Shown here one piece after another: positions 1 through 5,647 of a stretch of DNA of 5,647 bases. This DNA comes from a virus (taxonomy: Duplodnaviria > Heunggongvirae > Uroviricota > Caudoviricetes), in IMG/VR virus record IMGVR_UViG_2540341028_000011, positions 1 through 5,647 of that record; one strand, 5' to 3'. The notes under the pieces were generated by a model, which was not told the DNA's origin, did not search any database, and saw nothing but the letters and a program-made list of their open reading frames with translations. Both the position numbers and the translations under genes were made by a program. Every line of letters begins with the position of its first letter. Positions within the stretch are counted from its first letter, which is position 1.

Positions 1-2
1 AT

Positions 3-188
3 CTCTGCTCTCATTGCCGTAAAACATGGCAACTACAGTTCACTTACACCGCCTCTCAGCCCGGTACGCACCAGAAAATCATTGATATGGCCATGAATGG
101 CGTCGGATGTCGCGCCAGTGCACGCATTATGGGCGTTGGCCTCAACACGGTTTTACGTCACTTAAAAAACTCAGGCCGCAGTCGGTAA
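3..188 (+). CDS. insA: IS1 InsA (5'-partial, C-terminal 61 codons, stop TAA 186-188)
   Basis: Frame 3 translates to [61 protein letters not shown], which matches the InsA C-terminus. It is not in the ORF track because the start lies upstream of the window. Confidence 0.85.
162..170 (+). promoter_or_regulatory. IS1 programmed -1 ribosomal frameshift site (A6C slippery run)
   Basis: TTAAAAAAC lies just before the insA stop, at the position where IS1 makes the InsAB' fusion. Confidence 0.7.
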
Positions 189-202
189 CCTCGCGCATAT
201 AA

Positions 203-610
203 CCGGGCAGTGATGTGATTGTCTGCGCTGAAATGGACGAACAGTGGGGCTACGTCGGTGCTAAATCACGTCAGCGCTGGCTGTTTTACGCGTATGACAG
301 GATACGGAGGACGGTTGTGGCGCACGTCTTCGGTGAACGCACTCTGGCCACACTGGAGCGTCTTCTGAGCCTGCTGTCGGCCTTTGAGGTCGTGGTATGG
401 ATGACGGATGGCTGGCCGCTGTATGAATCACGCCTGAAGGGAAAGCTGCACGTTATCAGCAAGCGTTACACTCAGCGCATTGAGCGACATAATCTGAATC
501 TGAGACAACATCTGGCAAGGCTGGGACGGAAGTCACTGTCGTTCTCAAAATCGGTGGAGCTGCATGACAAGGTCATCGGGCATTATCTGAACATAAAACA
601 CTATCAGTAA
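203..610 (+). CDS. insB: IS1 insB reading frame (catalytic part of the InsAB' transposase); cut off from insA by a TAA at 200-202
   Basis: Frame 2 [29 protein letters not shown]...[15 protein letters not shown] (track 215..610) matches IS1 InsB. The frame is normally entered by a -1 frameshift at the A6C site, but here it hits TAA 11 codons after that site. Confidence 0.85.
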
Positions 611-611
611 G

Positions 612-1643
612 TTGGAGTCATTACCCGCCGACTGCCTGGAATTTATCTGGTCGTTACCCGAAAATTCTGTTGACCTGATAGTCACGGACCCGCCGTACTT
701 TAAAGTGAAGCCTGAGGGCTGGGATAACCAGTGGAAGGGCGACGATGATTACCTGAAGTGGCTGGAGCAGTGTCTGGCGCAGTTCTGGCGGGTGCTGAAA
801 CCTGCCGGAAGTCTTTACCTGTTCTGTGGTCATCGCCTGGCATCTGATATCGAAATCATGATGCGTGAACGCTTCAGTGTGCTGAACCATATTATCTGAG
901 CGAAGCCGTCCGGACGCTGGAACGGATGCAACAAGGAAAGCCTGCGGGCGTATTTCCCCGCCACAGAGCGCATTCTGTTCGCGGAACATTATCAGGGGCC
1001 GTACCGCCCGAAAGATGATGGCTATGAGGCGAAGGGCAGTGCACTGAAACAGCATGTGATGGCCCCGCTGATTTCTTACTTTCGTGATGCGCGAGCTGCC
1101 CTGGGGATAACGGCAAAACAGATTGCAGATGCCACAGGAAAGAAAAACATGGTGTCGCACTGGTTCAGTGCCAGTCAGTGGCAGTTGCCGAATGAAAGCG
1201 ATTATCTGAAATTACAGGCGCTGTTTGCCCGGGTGGCAGAAGAGAAGCATCGGCGTGGTGAACTGGAAAAGCTCCACCACCAGCTGGTGGATACGTATAC
1301 CTCACTGAACCGGCAGTATGCGGAGCTGCTGAGTGAATATAAACATCTGCGGCGGTATTTTGGCGTGACGGTGCAGGTGCCGTATACCGATGTGTGGACG
1401 CATAAACCGGTGCAGTTCTATCCCGGGAAACATCCGTGCGAAAAACCGGCAGAAATGCTGCAGCAGATAATCAGCGCTAGCAGTCGTCCGGGTGACCTGA
1501 TTGCAGATTTTTTCATGGGGTCGGGTTCGACAGTGAAAGCGGCACTGGCGCTCGGGCGTCGTGCAATTGGCGTTGAGCTGGAGACTGAACGTTTTGAGCA
1601 GACGGTTCGGGAAGTACAGGATTTAGTCAGCCAGAACGGATGA
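612..1643 (+). pseudogene. Phage-type beta-class DNA (probably N6-adenine) methyltransferase, disrupted: 5' end replaced by the IS1 terminus and an in-frame TGA at 897-899
   Basis: Track ORFs 612..899 and 1056..1643 are in the same frame (frame 3), and the only stop between them is TGA 897-899. Motif IV DLIVTDPPY is near the N-terminus and the AdoMet-binding motif DFFMGSGST near the C-terminus, which is the beta-class order. The first five codons (TTG-GAG-TCA-TTA-CCC) are IS1 terminal sequence, so the native start is lost. Confidence 0.8.
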
Positions 1644-1645
1644 TA

Positions 1646-1674
1646 TTGAAGAATTAATTACGCGTCGTTATTAT
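1646..1674 (+). promoter_or_regulatory. Sigma70-type promoter for the tRNA cluster (-35 TTGAAG 1646-1651, 17 bp spacer, -10 TATTAT 1669-1674, GC-rich discriminator GCGGC)
   Basis: The hexamers and spacing put the predicted start about 1681-1683, just before the first tRNA at 1684. A GC-rich discriminator is typical of stable-RNA promoters. Confidence 0.55.
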
Positions 1675-1683
1675 GCGGCTCCC

Positions 1684-1759
1684 GGCCCTTTAGCTCAGTG
1701 GTGAGAGCGAGCGACTCATAATCGCCAGGTCGCTGGTTCAAATCCAGCAAGGGCCACCA
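1684..1759 (+). tRNA. ileZ: tRNA-Ile2-like, anticodon CAU (lysidine type; elongator Met not strictly excluded), 76 nt with encoded CCA
   Basis: Cloverleaf reads directly: acceptor GGCCCTT/AAGGGCC, anticodon loop CTCATAA, T-loop GGTTCAAATCC, 3' ACCA. It closely resembles E. coli ileX from memory, including C4 and C5 in the acceptor stem. Confidence 0.85.
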
Positions 1760-1766
1760 TCACATA

Positions 1767-1843
1767 CCGCCATTAGCTCATCAGGAAAGAGCGCCAGCCT
1801 TCGAAGCTGGCTGCGCGGGGTTCAAGTCCCCGATGGCGGTCCA
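1767..1843 (+). tRNA. argN: tRNA-Arg, anticodon UCG (decodes CGA, rare in E. coli), 77 nt with encoded CCA
   Basis: Acceptor CCGCCAT/ATGGCGG, anticodon stem CCAGC/GCTGG with loop CTTCGAA, T-arm CGGGG-TTCAAGT-CCCCG, then discriminator plus CCA. Confidence 0.85.
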
Positions 1844-1856
1844 TTATCTGCATCAT

Positions 1857-1933
1857 GCGTTGTTAGCTCAGCCGGACAGAGCAATTGCCTTCTAAGCAAT
1901 CGGTCACTGGTTCGAATCCAGTACAACGCGCCA
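1857..1933 (+). tRNA. argO: tRNA-Arg, anticodon UCU (argU-like, decodes AGA/AGG), 77 nt with encoded CCA
   Basis: Acceptor GCGTTGT/ACAACGC, anticodon stem ATTGC/GCAAT with loop CTTCTAA, T-arm ACTGG-TTCGAAT-CCAGT, 3' GCCA. It resembles E. coli argU from memory. Confidence 0.9.
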
Positions 1934-1948
1934 CACTTATTTTCCCTG

Positions 1949-1973
1949 GCTCGCTTTTGCGGGCTTTTTTTTT
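1949..1973 (+). terminator. Rho-independent terminator closing the tRNA cluster
   Basis: Hairpin GCTCGC-TTTT-GCGGGC (6 bp with one G-U pair) followed directly by a run of nine T. Confidence 0.6.
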
Positions 1974-2170
1974 AAATGTCTCACAATTCAGACGGTTGAC
2001 TGTTGTCTGGTTTGCGGGGAGTTTGTTAAAAGAAACTGGCATGGTGAATCCCCCTGTGCGGAGGGGCAATCAGCGAGTAGGTATATGGGATAATCGCGGA
2101 TTCAGGTGCTGGTACTGAATTCACCGGGAGGCACCCGGCACCATGCAATGGCACATAGCGCCACTCTCCA

Positions 2171-2197
2171 GCCCCTCTCCGGAGGGGCTTTCTTGTG
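2171..2197 (+). terminator. Rho-independent terminator-like hairpin (plus strand)
   Basis: Perfect 7 bp stem GCCCCTC/GAGGGGC with tetraloop TCCG, followed by TTTCTTGTG. Confidence 0.55.
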
Positions 2198-2200
2198 GGC

Positions 2201-2229
2201 AAAAAAAGCCCGCGCTGGGAGACGCGGGC
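2201..2229 (-). terminator. Rho-independent terminator on the minus strand, convergent with the one at 2171-2197
   Basis: The plus strand reads A7-GCCCGCG-CTGGGAGA-CGCGGGC, so the minus strand reads a 7 bp GC stem followed by TTTTTTT. Confidence 0.55.
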
Positions 2230-2422
2230 GGCAAGGAATAAACAATAAAACGTGAAGTAATATTTCAGCTGGCGAATAATACCCCATAGTAGTCACTCTG
2301 CGCAACTGCGCGGTCTTTTTCGAATTGCGGGCTGTCGTCTCTCTTCTGCCATTGTCCTGTAACTTCCGGACTTCAGCCCGCTCCTCATTTTACTCACAAT
2401 ATTATCCCGGCCGGGAGGATTC

Positions 2423-3502
2423 ATGGCTTTTAAACACTATGATGTTGTCAGGGCGGCGTCGCCGTCAGATCTTGCGGAAAAGCTGACACATAAACTGAAA
2501 GAGGGCTGGCAGCCGTTTGGTAGTCCGGTGGCCATAACCCCTTATACTCTGATGCAGGCGATTGCAGCAGAAGGTGCAGTAATCAGCGCCACCAGCGACC
2601 CGGAGTATTACTTTGTTGTGGTTCTGGCAGGGCAGTCAAACGGCATGTCGTATGGTGAAGGCCTTCCGCTGCCGGGGACATATGACCGTCCGGACCCGCG
2701 TATTAAGCAACTGGCGCGTCGCAGTACGGTGACACCGGGCGGTGCAGCATGCAAATATAACGACATCATTCTGGCGGACCATTGTCTGCATGATGTGCAG
2801 GACATGAGCCGTCTTAACCATCCGAAAGCGGACCTGTCAAAGGGGCAGTACGGAACCGTGGGGCAGGGGCTGCATATCGCCAAAAAACTGCTGCCGTTTA
2901 TACCGGCGAATGCGGGCATTCTGCTGGTTCCGTGCTGTCGTGGTGGTTCAGCGTTCACCACCGGAGCTGATGGCACATACAGTGACGCGAGTGGTGCCTC
3001 GGAGAATTCAACCCGCTGGGGTGTGGACAAGCCGCTGTATAAGGACCTTATCGGTCGAACAAAAGCGGCACTGGAGAAGAACCCGAAAAATGTGCTGTTT
3101 GCCGTGGTGTGGATGCAGGGGGAATTTGATTTTGGCGGTACGCCGGCAAATCATGCCGCACAGTTTGGTGCGCTGGTTGATAAATTCCGTGCAGACCTGG
3201 CGGATATGGCAGGCCAGTGCGTCGGTGGCTCTGCTGGCGGTGTTCCCTGGATATGCGGGGACACGACGTATTTCTGGAAGCAGAAGAACGAATCCACGTA
3301 CCAGACGGTGTACGGCAGCTATAAAAATAAAACGGAAAAGAATATCCATTTCGTACCGTTCATGACCGATGAGAACGGGGTGAATGTGCCGACGAACAAA
3401 CCGGAAGAAGACCCGGACATTCGGGGTATCGGTTATTACGGTTCGAAATGGCGTGACAGCTCAGCCACCTGGACGTCACAGGACAGGGCGAGCCATTTCT
3501 AG
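2423..3502 (+). CDS. nanS-p: Prophage NanS-p-like sialate 9-O-acetylesterase (N-terminal DUF1737-like segment plus SGNH/SASA esterase domain), 3'-truncated by IS2
   Basis: 359 aa ORF with GGAGG 6 nt upstream of the ATG. The GQSNGMSYGEGLPLP block and the following sequence resemble E. coli NanS/YjhS and the prophage esterase found downstream of stx, from memory. The stop TAG 3500-3502 is the first three bases of the IS2 left end. Confidence 0.8.
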   Translation: MAFKHYDVVRAASPSDLAEKLTHKLKEGWQPFGSPVAITPYTLMQAIAAEGAVISATSDPEYYFVVVLAGQSNGMSYGEGLPLPGTYDRPDPRIKQLARRSTVTPGGAACKYNDIILADHCLHDVQDMSRLNHPKADLSKGQYGTVGQGLHIAKKLLPFIPANAGILLVPCCRGGSAFTTGADGTYSDASGASENSTRWGVDKPLYKDLIGRTKAALEKNPKNVLFAVVWMQGEFDFGGTPANHAAQFGALVDKFRADLADMAGQCVGGSAGGVPWICGDTTYFWKQKNESTYQTVYGSYKNKTEKNIHFVPFMTDENGVNVPTNKPEEDPDIRGIGYYGSKWRDSSATWTSQDRASHF

Positions 3503-3837
3503 ACTGGCCCCCTGAATCTCCAGACAACCAGTATCACTTAAATAAGTGATAGTCTTAATACTAGTTTTTAGACTAGTCATTGGAGTACAGATGATTGATG
3601 TCTTAGGGCCGGAGAAACGCAGACGGCGTACCACACAGGAAAAGATCGCAATTGTTCAGCAGAGCTTTGAACCGGGGATGACGGTCTCCCTCGTTGCCCG
3701 GCAACATGGTGTAGCAGCCAGCCAGTTATTTCTCTGGCGTAAGCAATACCAGGAAGGAAGTCTTACTGCTGTGGCCGCCGGAGAACAGGTTGTTCCTGCC
3801 TCTGAACTTGCTGCCGCCATGAAGCAGATTAAAGAAC
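3500..3837 (+). mobile_element. IS2 left-end fragment (left terminal repeat TAGACTGGCCCCCTGAATCTCCAGACAACC...), interrupted by IS629
   Basis: The terminal sequence and the start of the InsC reading frame match IS2 from memory. The element breaks off at about 3837, where the IS629 terminal repeat begins. Confidence 0.85.
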
Positions 3838-3839
3838 TG
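3591..3839 (+). pseudogene. insC: IS2 orfA (InsC) N-terminal fragment, about 83 codons, truncated by the IS629 insertion
   Basis: [56 protein letters not shown]...MKQIKEL follows a GGAG ribosome-binding site. After KEL the frame runs into the IS629 repeat, giving NRPGNPGD*. The track start at 3546 is probably an upstream over-extension. Confidence 0.85.
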
Positions 3840-3891
3840 AACCGCCCCGGGAATCCTGGAGACTAAACTCCCTGAGAAAGAGGTAAACAGG

Positions 3892-4218
3892 ATGACTAAA
3901 AATACTCGTTTTTCCCCCGAAGTCCGTCAGAGGGCGATTCGTATGGTTCTGGAAAGTCAGGGCGAATATGACTCACAGTGGGCGGCAATTTGTTCCATTG
4001 CCCCAAAGATTGGCTGTATACCGGAGACTCTGCGTGTCTGGGTACGCCAGCATGAGCGGGATACCGGAGGCGGTGATGGCGGGCTCACCACCGCTGAACG
4101 TCAGCGTCTGAAAGAGCTGGAACGTGAAAATCGTGAACTGCGCCGCAGTAACGATATCCTTCGCCAGGCTTCCGCTTATTTTGCGAAGGCGGAGTTCGAC
4201 CGCCTCTGGAAAAAGTGA
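3892..4218 (+). CDS. IS629 OrfA (IS3-family helix-turn-helix / leucine-zipper transposase subunit)
   Basis: 108 aa [33 protein letters not shown]...[36 protein letters not shown] with AAGAGG ribosome-binding site. An A-rich run GGAAAAAG sits at the orfA end, where IS3-family frameshifting occurs. Confidence 0.9.
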
Positions 4219-4826
4219 TGCCACTGCTGGATAAGCTGCGTAAGCTGTACGGGGTCGGACCGGTATGCAGTGAACTACATATTGCCCCGTCAACGTATTA
4301 CCACTGTCAGCAACAGCGACATCATCCTGATAAACGCAGTGCCCGTGCGCAGCGCGATGACTGGCTGAAGAAAGAGATACTGCGCGTATACGATGGGAAT
4401 CATCAGGTATACGGTGTGCGTAAAGTCTGGCGTCAGTTGTTACGGGAAGGTATCAGAGTGGCCAGATGCACTGTGGCACGTCTCATGGCGGTTATGGGAC
4501 TTGCCGGTGTTCTCCGGGGTAAAAAGGTCCGTACGACCATCAGCCGGAAAGCCGTTGCCGCAGGCGACCGCGTAAACCGTCAGTTCGTGGCAGAACGACC
4601 TGACCAGCTGTGGGTGGCTGATTTTACTTACGTCAGCACATGGCAGGGCTTCGTCTATGTGGCGTTCATTATTGATGTGTTTGCCGGATACATCGTGGGG
4701 TGGCGGGTCTCATCGTCCATGGAAACGACATTCGTGCTGGATGCTCTGGAGCAGGCGTTATGGGCCCGTCGACCGTCCGGCACGGTCCATCACAGTGATA
4801 AAGGTTCTCAGTATGTATCGCTGGCC
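4215..4826 (+). pseudogene. IS629 OrfB (DDE transposase catalytic domain), 3'-truncated with the third catalytic residue region missing
   Basis: Frame -1 relative to orfA. Contains WVADFTYV and HHSDKGSQY, the first two acidic-residue motifs of an IS3-family DD(35)E domain. The ORF then reads 4 codons into the next element (VSVN*), so the E-containing region is absent. Confidence 0.85.
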
Positions 4827-4912
4827 GTAAGCGTAAACTGACCGCCGTATGTAGCCATTAAGCCTGTATTGGTAACGTAGGTGCCCACCTTTTCAACTAG
4901 TGGACACCTGTT

Positions 4913-5332
4913 ATGGAACAGAAAGCATTATCTGCAGAACCCCGCAGATCATTTTCAAATGAGTTTAAACTTCAAATGGTTAAACTGGCTTCACAACCAG
5001 GAGCCTCTGTTGCCCGTATTGCCCGGGAACACGATATCAATGATAACCTGCTGTTCAAATGGCTCAGGCTCTGGCAGAACGAAGGGCGCATATCGCGGCG
5101 TCTTCCGGTAACAACCTCTTCTGACACTGGCGTTGAATTATTACCTGTGGAGATAACGCCGGATGAGCCGAAAGAACCTGTGGCTGCTCTTACTTCGTCT
5201 TTATCTACTCAGACTACTGTTAGTGCCAGCTCCTGCAAGGTGGAGTTCCGTCACGGTAACATGACGCTGGAAAATCCTTCACCAGAGCTGCTCACAGTGT
5301 TGATCCGTGAACTGACCGGGAGGGGACGATGA
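4913..5332 (+). CDS. tnpA: IS66-family accessory protein TnpA (helix-turn-helix)
   Basis: 139 aa ORF MEQKALSAEPRRSFSNEFKLQMVKLASQPGASVARIAREHDINDNLLFKWLRLWQNEG..., with the stop overlapping the next start. Confidence 0.8.
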   Translation: MEQKALSAEPRRSFSNEFKLQMVKLASQPGASVARIAREHDINDNLLFKWLRLWQNEGRISRRLPVTTSSDTGVELLPVEITPDEPKEPVAALTSSLSTQTTVSASSCKVEFRHGNMTLENPSPELLTVLIRELTGRGR

Positions 5333-5647
5333 TCTCACTCCCGTCAGGCACCCGCATCTGGCTCGTTGCTGGGATAACCGATATGCGTAAGTCTTTCAAC
5401 GGGCTGGGTGAACAGGTACAGCATGTGCTGAATGATAATCCCTTCTCCGGTCACCTGTTCATCTTCCGTGGCCGACGGGGTGACATGATTAAAATCCTGT
5501 GGGCTGATGCTGATGGTCTGTGCCTGTTCACCAGACGCCTGGAGGAAGGCCAGTTTATCTGGCCTGCTGTGCGTGACGGCAAGGTATCCATTACCCGCTC
5601 GCAACTGGCAATGCTCCTCGATAAGCTGGACTGGCGTCAGCCAAAAA
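5329..5647 (+). CDS. tnpB: IS66-family TnpB (Orf2), 5' part; open to the window edge, so absent from the ORF track
   Basis: Frame 1 from ATG 5329 translates without a stop to MISLPSGTRIWLVAGITDMRKSFNGLGEQVQHVLNDNPFSGHLFIFRGRRGDMIKILWADADGLCLFTRRLEEGQFIWPAVRDGKVSITRSQLAMLLDKLDWRQPK, recognisable as IS66 TnpB. Confidence 0.85.
   Translation, partial: MISLPSGTRIWLVAGITDMRKSFNGLGEQVQHVLNDNPFSGHLFIFRGRRGDMIKILWADADGLCLFTRRLEEGQFIWPAVRDGKVSITRSQLAMLLDKLDWRQPK

Follow-up and report, generated by a model that had tools for sequence, protein, structure and literature searches.

A minus-strand small RNA in the moron slot of a decayed, stx-negative Escherichia coli prophage as a probable copy of the Hfq-binding RNA EcOnc08/21/42

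The window analyzed here, by which we mean the whole 5,647-nucleotide stretch of DNA at positions 1 to 5,647 of IMG/VR virus record IMGVR_UViG_2540341028_000011 (Caudoviricetes), is the "moron" slot in the late region of a lambdoid E. coli prophage that is stx-negative and has decayed. Our subject is a predicted small RNA (sRNA) on its minus strand. In its short form, this RNA would be 70 nucleotides (nt) long (2201-2270, minus strand) and consist of an AU-rich, single-stranded 5' part, a seed, a terminator, and a run of 7 U residues (U7). The parts can be placed precisely. The core ACUUCACGUUUU (2245-2258, minus strand) is a possible second pairing region; the seed CCUUGCC (2230-2236, minus strand), the complement of GGCAAGG/GGCAGGG, lies directly 5' of the terminator stem; the terminator stem-loop GCCCGCG(U)/(G)CGCGGGC occupies 2208-2229 (minus strand); and the U7 tail (2201-2207, minus strand) is the termination site and the expected binding site for the proximal face of Hfq. 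Upstream on the same strand are a -10 hexamer, TATTAT (2276-2281), an 18-nt spacer (2282-2299), and a -35 hexamer, TTGCGC (2300-2305). A longer isoform would add an upstream extension (2271-2392, minus strand) that is antisense to the leader of a sialate-esterase gene and holds the segment equivalent to EcOnc21/EcOnc42 (2281-2366), and its putative promoter is AAGCCA (2429-2424), 17 nt, and GATAAT (2406-2401), together spanning 2401-2429 on the minus strand. On the plus strand, an STnc100-type sRNA (2010-2200) with its terminator at 2170-2189 is convergent with the minus-strand candidate, the 2 terminators standing tail to tail.

An earlier note on this DNA had picked out the 2 hexamers and the hairpin, and on checking against the sequence all of its coordinates proved correct. 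It had further described the hairpin as a strong intrinsic terminator on the minus strand, some 70 nt downstream of TTGCGC-18-TATTAT, and this hairpin is indeed the best such site in the window, ranked top by the terminator scan with 8 pairs (7 of them G-C), a loop of 6, and T7, and folding at -16.9 kcal/mol. The scan returned 9 sites in the window versus 4.4 +/- 2.2 in shuffles. Folding of a 74-nt RNA gave z = -2.45, with the stable structure consisting entirely of the terminator. The role of such U tails in Hfq binding is established (as cited in PMC4104026). The further remark that no minus-strand gene here needs a terminator also holds, as the only minus-strand open reading frames (ORFs), 2102-2305 and 2293-2424, cross the terminator or the promoter. 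The 4- and 8-nt indels found in homologs shift the frame and so exclude a conserved ORF over the RNA body.

This sRNA is real and is on record, although uncharacterized, as EcOnc08/21/42 and as an sRNA of enteropathogenic E. coli (EPEC) found by ligation and sequencing of interacting RNAs (RIL-seq). Hfq crosslinking and analysis of cDNA (CRAC) in strain Sakai gave 3 peaks in prophage Sp4, namely EcOnc05 on the plus strand and EcOnc08 (1179938-1180010) and EcOnc21 (1180016-1180101) on the minus strand (PMC4104026, Table S2), and EcOnc42 is the homolog in the Stx1 phage Sp15, with a Northern size of ~271 nt (PMC4104026, Tree et al. 2014). The window is colinear with both Sp4 and Sp15 across this region. 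Since the Sp4 colinearity holds at an offset of 1177735, EcOnc08 corresponds to window 2203-2275 and EcOnc21 to 2281-2366, while EcOnc42 falls at 2284-2366 after coordinate correction. At Sp4 (1.18 Mb) the EcOnc coordinates of the literature need no correction, but at Sp5 (1.27 Mb) and Sp15 (2.92 Mb) they are 135 nt lower than in NC_002695.2. This +135-nt shift between NC_002695.1 and NC_002695.2 was found via AsxR and confirmed by one read from crosslinking, ligation, and sequencing of hybrids (CLASH). An EcOnc42 peak at the equivalent of 2419-2501, antisense within the esterase coding sequence, was rejected as an artefact of the shift. The coordinates in the CLASH table (PMC5286369) look 0-based.

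In EPEC E2348/69, the sRNA "E2348C_1409.E2348C_1408.IGR" lies on the minus strand at 1444797-1444978 in prophage PP6 (PMC8550237, Table S6) and was named as the EcOnc08/21/42 homolog by its authors (Pearl Mizrahi et al. 2021, PMC8550237). Its 3' end is window position 2201 and its estimated 5' end is window position 2382. Over 2196-2440 the window is 94.7% identical to Sp4 and 93.4% identical to Sp15, and within the short RNA 68 of the 70 nt (97%) are the same as in the Sp4 and EPEC copies, leaving 2 substitutions. The setting is shared as well: the RNA is antisense to the late operon, it is located between the moron/tRNA slot and the esterase ORF, and the STnc100-type sRNA is convergent with it. 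The near-identical Sakai copy binds Hfq, as seen in the CRAC peak EcOnc08 (PMC4104026, Table S2); the EPEC copy behaves as an sRNA and passes the RIL-seq sRNA criteria (PMC8550237, Tables S6 and S7); and the Sakai copies are found in RNase E-CLASH hybrids with mRNAs (PMC5286369). From the 97% identity, we infer that Hfq binding, the partners, and the seed motif carry over to the window's copy. The earlier note had presented the RNA as a candidate; it is not an undiscovered one, having already been detected experimentally in enterohemorrhagic E. coli and EPEC as EcOnc08/21/42. Its central idea of a terminator-ended, Hfq-type regulatory sRNA on the minus strand of the stx/moron slot is sustained by these near-identical copies in the CRAC, RIL-seq, and CLASH data. 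Later reviews enter the target of EcOnc42/21/08 as "unknown."

A scan of Rfam 15 yielded no family for the candidate, with the AgvB and AsxR families (RF02702 and RF02703) unmatched at E <= 1. The only Rfam hit to it was a weak match over the full length of the OmrA-B model (RF00079) at 2201-2289 on the minus strand, which at 25.2 bits against a gathering score of 40 (E = 0.14) is not significant and is treated as chance or architectural resemblance. Several other named sRNAs were considered as the identity of the candidate and rejected. Esr41 is encoded in SpLE1/OI-43, a different slot, and Rfam gives nothing for it here. Esr055 and EvrS come from the same intergenic region but are oriented with the late operon, and because they run along it they represent the plus-strand STnc100-type partner and therefore not the candidate. 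Among PasA-D, PasD is again the STnc100-type partner, and PasA (EcOnc51/52) lies downstream of the esterase. EcOnc33 (~71 nt, Sp6), suspected from its size, maps to the 3' end of the esterase gene.

Conservation was assessed on 80 esterase-linked IMG/VR loci together with a pattern scan, in which the RNA was represented by 22 different versions. A covariance model (R1) built on the RNA body found 36 full copies; it scores window 2201-2270 at 102.8 bits and is also matched in 35 homologous loci. Most copies have the terminator stem GCCCGCG/CGCGGGC, L025 has GCCCGCA/UGCGGGC, and the L016, L186, and L019 types have a wholly different, fully complementary stem, AACCGCUC/GAGCGGUU. The covariation score of 0.218 was equaled by none of 500 shuffles. 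Both the MAFFT and the covariance model alignments leave the alternative stem out of register, while the individual folds show compensation, so the covariation counts understate it. The terminator is maintained through compensation in the homologs, and all of them have a U tail of 6 to 10 U. Within the seed, CUUGC is invariant, and the heptamer is CCUUGCC in most copies, CCUUGCU in L015/L025, and UCUUGCC in L019/L020; in L016 it is duplicated. The core is near-invariant in EcOnc08-type copies, with the variant CACGUUUC in L039. That no functional RNA is made here, with the hairpin serving only to block antisense transcription as an insulator or terminator and with hexamers that match by chance, is barely credible. 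It would agree with a promoter match that is insignificant when taken alone, but the Hfq-CRAC, RIL-seq, and CLASH signals of the homologs already contradict it, and the seed, core, hexamers, and terminator pairing are kept across diverged copies. A search of 5426 complete E. coli genomes found the 130-nt region in 1113 of them, with as many as 6 copies apiece. Two pattern scans of GTDB species representatives found nothing, the E. coli representative apparently being without the element.

The interaction partners reported for the EPEC copy are informative about how the RNA may act. Its chimeras with the cfa leader numbered 767 and those with the dppA leader 197, and other partners are emrA, tir, espC, gadX, perA, pcm, the yagU intergenic region (IGR), and a gene from the enterocyte effacement locus (LEE) (PMC8550237). 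A GGCAAGG/GGCAGGG motif is common to the EPEC RIL-seq targets, and GGCAAGG is the exact complement of CCUUGCC (2236-2230), which is unpaired in both the minimum free energy and the centroid folds. When the window sequence is used, the predicted duplexes with cfa, emrA, the yagU IGR, and E2348C_3965 all run through sRNA nt 35-46, and with energies of -15.5 to -20.9 kcal/mol these 4 are better than 98-99% of shuffled targets. In cfa, the site occupies positions -135 to -129 relative to the AUG, within the long leader. RydC, ArrS, CpxQ, and GadF converge on this long cfa leader as a hub, and cyclopropane fatty-acid synthesis and acid resistance are under its control. The seed region is also employed in the CLASH hybrids that involve ECs2472 and ECs2888, each a single read, and in one further CLASH read the core, as ACUUCACGUUUUG, is paired to CAAAACGUGAGGU of the ECs2692 mRNA. 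An accessible, conserved seed complementary to multiple mRNA targets, found here, is characteristic of the Hfq-dependent trans-acting class, as is a terminator with a long U tail.

Several points weigh against taking the window's RNA to be a functional Hfq-dependent sRNA. For the dppA, tir, perA, and pcm sites the predicted pairing does not surpass that with shuffled sites, the CLASH support consists of single reads, the literature reports no regulatory outcome for any target, and the expression and binding data all come from homologs in strains other than the window's. With these set beside the near-identity of the copies, we consider it probable that 2201-2270 on the minus strand, with its upstream extension, is this prophage's copy of EcOnc08/21/42 and acts as an Hfq-dependent sRNA.

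Where the RNA begins is a separate question, and the earlier note had placed a promoter at TTGCGC-18-TATTAT with a 5' end near 2269. On consensus this pair does not stand out. The -35 matches TTGACA at 3 of 6 positions and the -10 hexamer matches at 5 of 6, so that the pair reaches 8/12 with a long spacer of 18 nt, and because 8/12 falls below its threshold the promoter scan did not list it. There are 17 equal or better sites in the 5.6-kb window versus 11.8 +/- 3.8 in block shuffles, and from the window sequence alone the promoter is at chance level. It is the comparative evidence, not the consensus match, that makes the promoter credible. When conservation was counted on loci chosen by the RNA body only and not by the hexamers, TTGCGC and TATTAT were invariant and exactly 18 nt apart in 36/36 copies, while the 6 nt before the -35, the last 6 nt of the spacer, and the discriminator were variable.

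The -35 is shared with the promoters of the anti-sRNAs AsxR and AgvB, and the -10 occupies the position of their TAAAAT. At the AsxR locus of Sakai Sp5 the arrangement is TTGCGC, 18 nt, TAAAAT, 5 nt, and +1, the IMG/VR loci are arranged likewise, and the primary 5' ends of AsxR and AgvB have been mapped by RNA ligase-mediated rapid amplification of the ends of cDNA (RACE) (PMC4104026). Judged by sequence, the window hexamers are positional homologs of this validated promoter, and its geometry would put +1 at A2270 and give an RNA of 70 nt. The CRAC peak of EcOnc08, a call separate from EcOnc21, stops no more than 5 nt from the predicted +1; in the case of AsxR, by comparison, both ends of the peak fall within 1-4 nt of the true ends of that RNA. 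The proposed promoter and 5' end gain support from the invariance of the hexamers and their AsxR/AgvB position, which predicts +1 at A2270, and not from likeness to the consensus. A 70-nt primary transcript is plausible but unproven, and the 65-75-nt transcript of the earlier note, although plausible from the promoter geometry, is not the sole product and perhaps not the main one. On the opposite strand, a terminator-like hairpin at 2298-2313, CTGCGCAACTGCGCGG followed by TCTTTTTCG, overlaps the minus-strand -35 and is kept in the Sakai copies. It is perhaps an attenuator ahead of the esterase.

Longer RNAs are evident in the homologs. The probe for EcOnc08/21/42 is the plus-strand sequence of window 2276-2310 and lies entirely upstream of the predicted +1, yet the Northern, the only one published, still gave ~271 nt. 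Since the probe lies upstream of +1, this Northern could not have detected the 70-nt form. RNA-seq coverage in EPEC leads to an estimate of ~182 nt (PMC8550237), and CLASH fragments start at the equivalent of 2392/2393 in Sp4 and Sp15 alike. Two hybrids include AUAUUAUUCGCCAGCUGAAA, crossing the -10 and +1, and because CLASH fragments cross these sites and longer RNAs are recorded, upstream transcription certainly reaches the terminator. In the putative promoter of the long isoform, the -35 overlaps the start codon of the esterase; the Sakai Sp4 and Sp15 version of this site reads ATGCCA-17-GATAAT and matches at 9/12 in the promoter scan, and the -35 of the window matches only at 3/6. Two independent CLASH hybrids both start at AUAUUAUUCG (~2282) in an AU-rich context, so any short form could stem from RNase E processing rather than from an internal promoter.

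These observations raise the possibility that only a long RNA (~180-270 nt, from ~2392 or further upstream) is transcribed, that the hexamers are conserved as part of it or of the plus-strand hairpin, and that a species of ~70-82 nt results from RNase E cleavage near 2282. The Northern size, the EPEC coverage, the common CLASH starts, and the 2 hybrids beginning in AU-rich sequence that would suit RNase E all fit such a scheme, as does the chance-level promoter match, and PasA, a neighboring prophage sRNA, is reportedly cut from a longer precursor. We nevertheless think it doubtful. The TTGCGC-18 scaffold of AsxR and AgvB yields RACE-mapped primary 5' ends 6 nt past the -10, and the hexamers stay fixed while the 6 nt on either side vary and even where the body has been swapped (L019 type). 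In L016-type loci, the pairing partner in the 2298-2313 hairpin is replaced and TTGCGC is retained, and the separate calling of EcOnc08 so close to the predicted +1 also argues for an internal start.

The overlap with the esterase leader allows another reading, in which the RNA acts mainly in cis as an antisense regulator of this nanS-like leader or of late-operon read-through, the long isoform being perfectly complementary to plus-strand 2271-2392. In its favor, the long isoform overlaps the esterase 5' leader, the candidate promoter overlaps the esterase ribosome binding site and start codon, and block 2298-2440 is kept across cassette types (see below). The RIL-seq and CLASH partners are trans-encoded mRNAs, however, that share a motif matching the 3' seed by complementarity; neither the seed nor the terminator falls within the overlap with the esterase leader; and in this prophage the esterase has been destroyed by insertion sequence (IS) insertions, while the sRNA is intact and identical to copies elsewhere. 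We regard a mainly cis role as unlikely.

In our preferred reading of an Hfq-dependent, trans-acting EcOnc08/21/42 RNA, transcription would run opposite to the late operon, in the slot flanked by the tRNA/stx "moron" position and the nanS-like esterase, and would terminate at 2229-2201, tail to tail with the STnc100-type sRNA. There are probably 2 nested transcripts with a common 3' end. One, the form seen in the homolog data, would be an RNA of ~190 nt starting near 2392 from the GATAAT promoter that overlaps the esterase start; the other, suggested by the scaffold shared with AsxR and AgvB, would be the 70-nt RNA starting at A2270 via TTGCGC-18-TATTAT. Action is most likely in trans, with Hfq on the U7 tail and the U-rich stretch and with the single-stranded CCUUGCC (2236-2230) pairing to GGCAAGG-type sites in mRNAs.

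In many related loci, homology to the window starts only at 2298, with the break at 2297/2298. There, an anti-sRNA cassette replaces the sequence after TTGCGCAG, with TTGCGC, 18 nt, TAAAAT, and 5 nt leading up to the RACE-mapped primary 5' end of AsxR, AgvB, or EcOnc03. The stretch 2201-2297 thus behaves as an exchangeable sRNA cassette, an alternative to those of the anti-sRNAs. TTGCGC is the last element of the block held in common with the AsxR/AgvB loci, and flanks are shared on both sides of the cassette. The far boundary is the end of the U tract, after which the terminator of the partner sRNA resumes, and each cassette type is found next to each type of partner terminator. Block 2298-2440 is kept whichever cassette type is present. 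As for the anti-sRNAs themselves, the candidate has the -35 TTGCGC, the 18-nt spacer, and a -10 that lies 6 nt before the predicted +1. In 2 further loci, L019 and L020 (~2290-2353, minus strand), a third sRNA body, UCGUUAAUUAAUUGUUCAUAUUGUUUCUUCUUGCC, with its own terminator follows TATTAT directly. In its 5' half it bears no relation to EcOnc08, its seed region (UCUUGCC) is similar, and as far as could be found this body is undescribed.

A broader proposal is that 2201-2297 is one allele of such a cassette, which lambdoid prophages insert into a fixed scaffold bounded by the shared -35 TTGCGC and, at the far side, by the partner terminator. The EcOnc08 type would then be a second family beside AgvB/AsxR, with a 70-nt primary transcript missed by Northerns and a conserved 3' seed, CCUUGCC, acting on host mRNAs for envelope, acid-stress, and virulence functions (such as cfa, emrA, gadX, and tir), and prophages would reprogram the post-transcriptional networks of the host by swapping cassettes and not by the evolution of new loci. 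We would give this proposal, taken as a whole, even chances. The same scaffold might suggest that the RNA is itself an anti-sRNA, or sponge, like AgvB and AsxR, whose 5' part mimics an mRNA target and titrates a core sRNA. The slot, orientation, promoter scaffold, and convergent partner types are those of the anti-sRNAs, and dppA is linked to AgvB and to the candidate RNA alike. This seems very unlikely all the same, as the 3' domain of the anti-sRNAs (~42 nt, GUAUCUCAUGC..UUGCCCGAACCCAYUCGGGC) is absent from the window and the Rfam AgvB and AsxR models are unmatched. The shared target motif maps to the conserved 3' seed and not to the variable 5' end, and the 10 motif-bearing RIL-seq partners are mRNAs or leaders and not sRNAs, although no search against core sRNA sequences was run.

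The remainder of the window shows a prophage in decay in which the tRNAs and both sRNAs remain intact. An IS1 transposase fragment (215-610) adjoins a DNA N6/N4-methylase gene that is 5'-truncated and broken into 2 ORFs (612-899 and 1056-1643); in related prophages this is a single gene of 352 amino acids (aa). The tRNA trio ileZ-argN-argO follows at 1684-1933. Directly after argO and before the STnc100-type sRNA is a terminator-like hairpin with T9 (1948-1974, plus strand), GGCTCGCTTTTGCGGGCT followed by TTTTTTTTT; it suggests that the tRNA cluster and this sRNA are separate transcription units. The sRNA itself (2010-2200, plus strand) is of the STnc100/PasD/Esr055/EvrS/EcOnc05 type (Rfam RF02076, 139.4 bits, E = 1e-31), and the published EcOnc05 probe matches window 2069-2103. 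The sRNAs published for enterohemorrhagic E. coli and EPEC as Esr055, EvrS, PasD, and EcOnc05/13 appear, under these different names, to belong or be related to this plus-strand element. Convergent sRNA pairs have been described in exactly this prophage slot (PMC4104026). The DUF1737/SASA sialate-esterase (nanS-like) ORF (2423-3502) is cut off by IS3-family elements and ends at 359 aa here versus ~620 aa elsewhere. Beyond it are nested IS3-family transposase genes (3546-5332), one of them IS629-like, with an ALIL frameshift pseudoknot at 4173-4289. Inside this IS region is a subthreshold Rfam match to the AfaR sRNA (4784-4919, minus strand; 50 bits against a gathering score of 100, E = 1e-6).

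The identical layout is annotated in Sakai prophage Sp4 and also in Sp15, where stx1AB replaces the tRNAs. The small slot has been struck repeatedly by insertion sequences. In L047 (~1269-1294), IS1 interrupts the sRNA after CACGUUUUG, and in E2348/69 (L085, 612-1985) ISEc13 lies between the tRNAs and a remnant of the partner sRNA.

This RNA has been seen in 3 transcriptome-wide interaction studies, yet it is without a name of its own, an Rfam family, or a mapped 5' end. To the existing record we add the promoter scaffold and cassette boundaries held in common with the anti-sRNAs, a connection of the conserved CCUUGCC to the target motif already published, and the recognition that the published Northern was blind to the predicted 70-nt form. 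In EPEC the long cfa leader ranks first among its RIL-seq partners, with LEE and per virulence transcripts among the others. As the RNA occurs in about one-fifth of complete E. coli genomes, with as many as 6 copies, a defined function would be relevant to the way in which cryptic, stx-negative prophages adjust the physiology and virulence of their hosts. The shared-promoter cassette also offers a testable model for the diversification of prophage sRNA repertoires.

Among known systems, the closest are EcOnc08/21/42 of Sakai Sp4 and Sp15, which have the same locus, strand, and neighbors, with tRNAs or stx1 upstream and the esterase downstream. The window differs from them in being another, IS-riddled and stx-negative prophage, whose RNA carries 2 substitutions and whose promoter spacer carries several, and the published size of ~271 nt covers the long form only. 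The EPEC sRNA E2348C_1409.E2348C_1408.IGR ends at the same 3' nucleotide, has an identical seed, and differs at 2 of 70 nt; unlike the window's copy, it has a length of 182 nt estimated from coverage and has ISEc13 between the tRNAs and the partner remnant. AgvB, AsxR, and EcOnc03 (RF02702 and RF02703) share the slot, orientation, convergent partner, -35 TTGCGC, and 18-nt spacer. The transcribed sequence of the candidate is unrelated to theirs except for UUGCC before the terminator, its -10 is TATTAT and its predicted length 70 nt versus TAAAAT and 51-60 nt, and the known partners of its homolog are mRNAs, whereas those of the anti-sRNAs are core sRNAs. PasA/EcOnc51-52 is likewise an Hfq-dependent prophage sRNA of the same neighborhood, has nested forms of 236 and 85 nt that share a terminator, and has a seed that also abuts or overlaps the terminator stem, but it lies between the esterase and the holin and has another sequence. 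OmrA and OmrB (RF00079) are Hfq-dependent RNAs of ~85 nt with a U-rich stretch before the terminator, and they differ in their conserved 5' seed, which is absent from the candidate.

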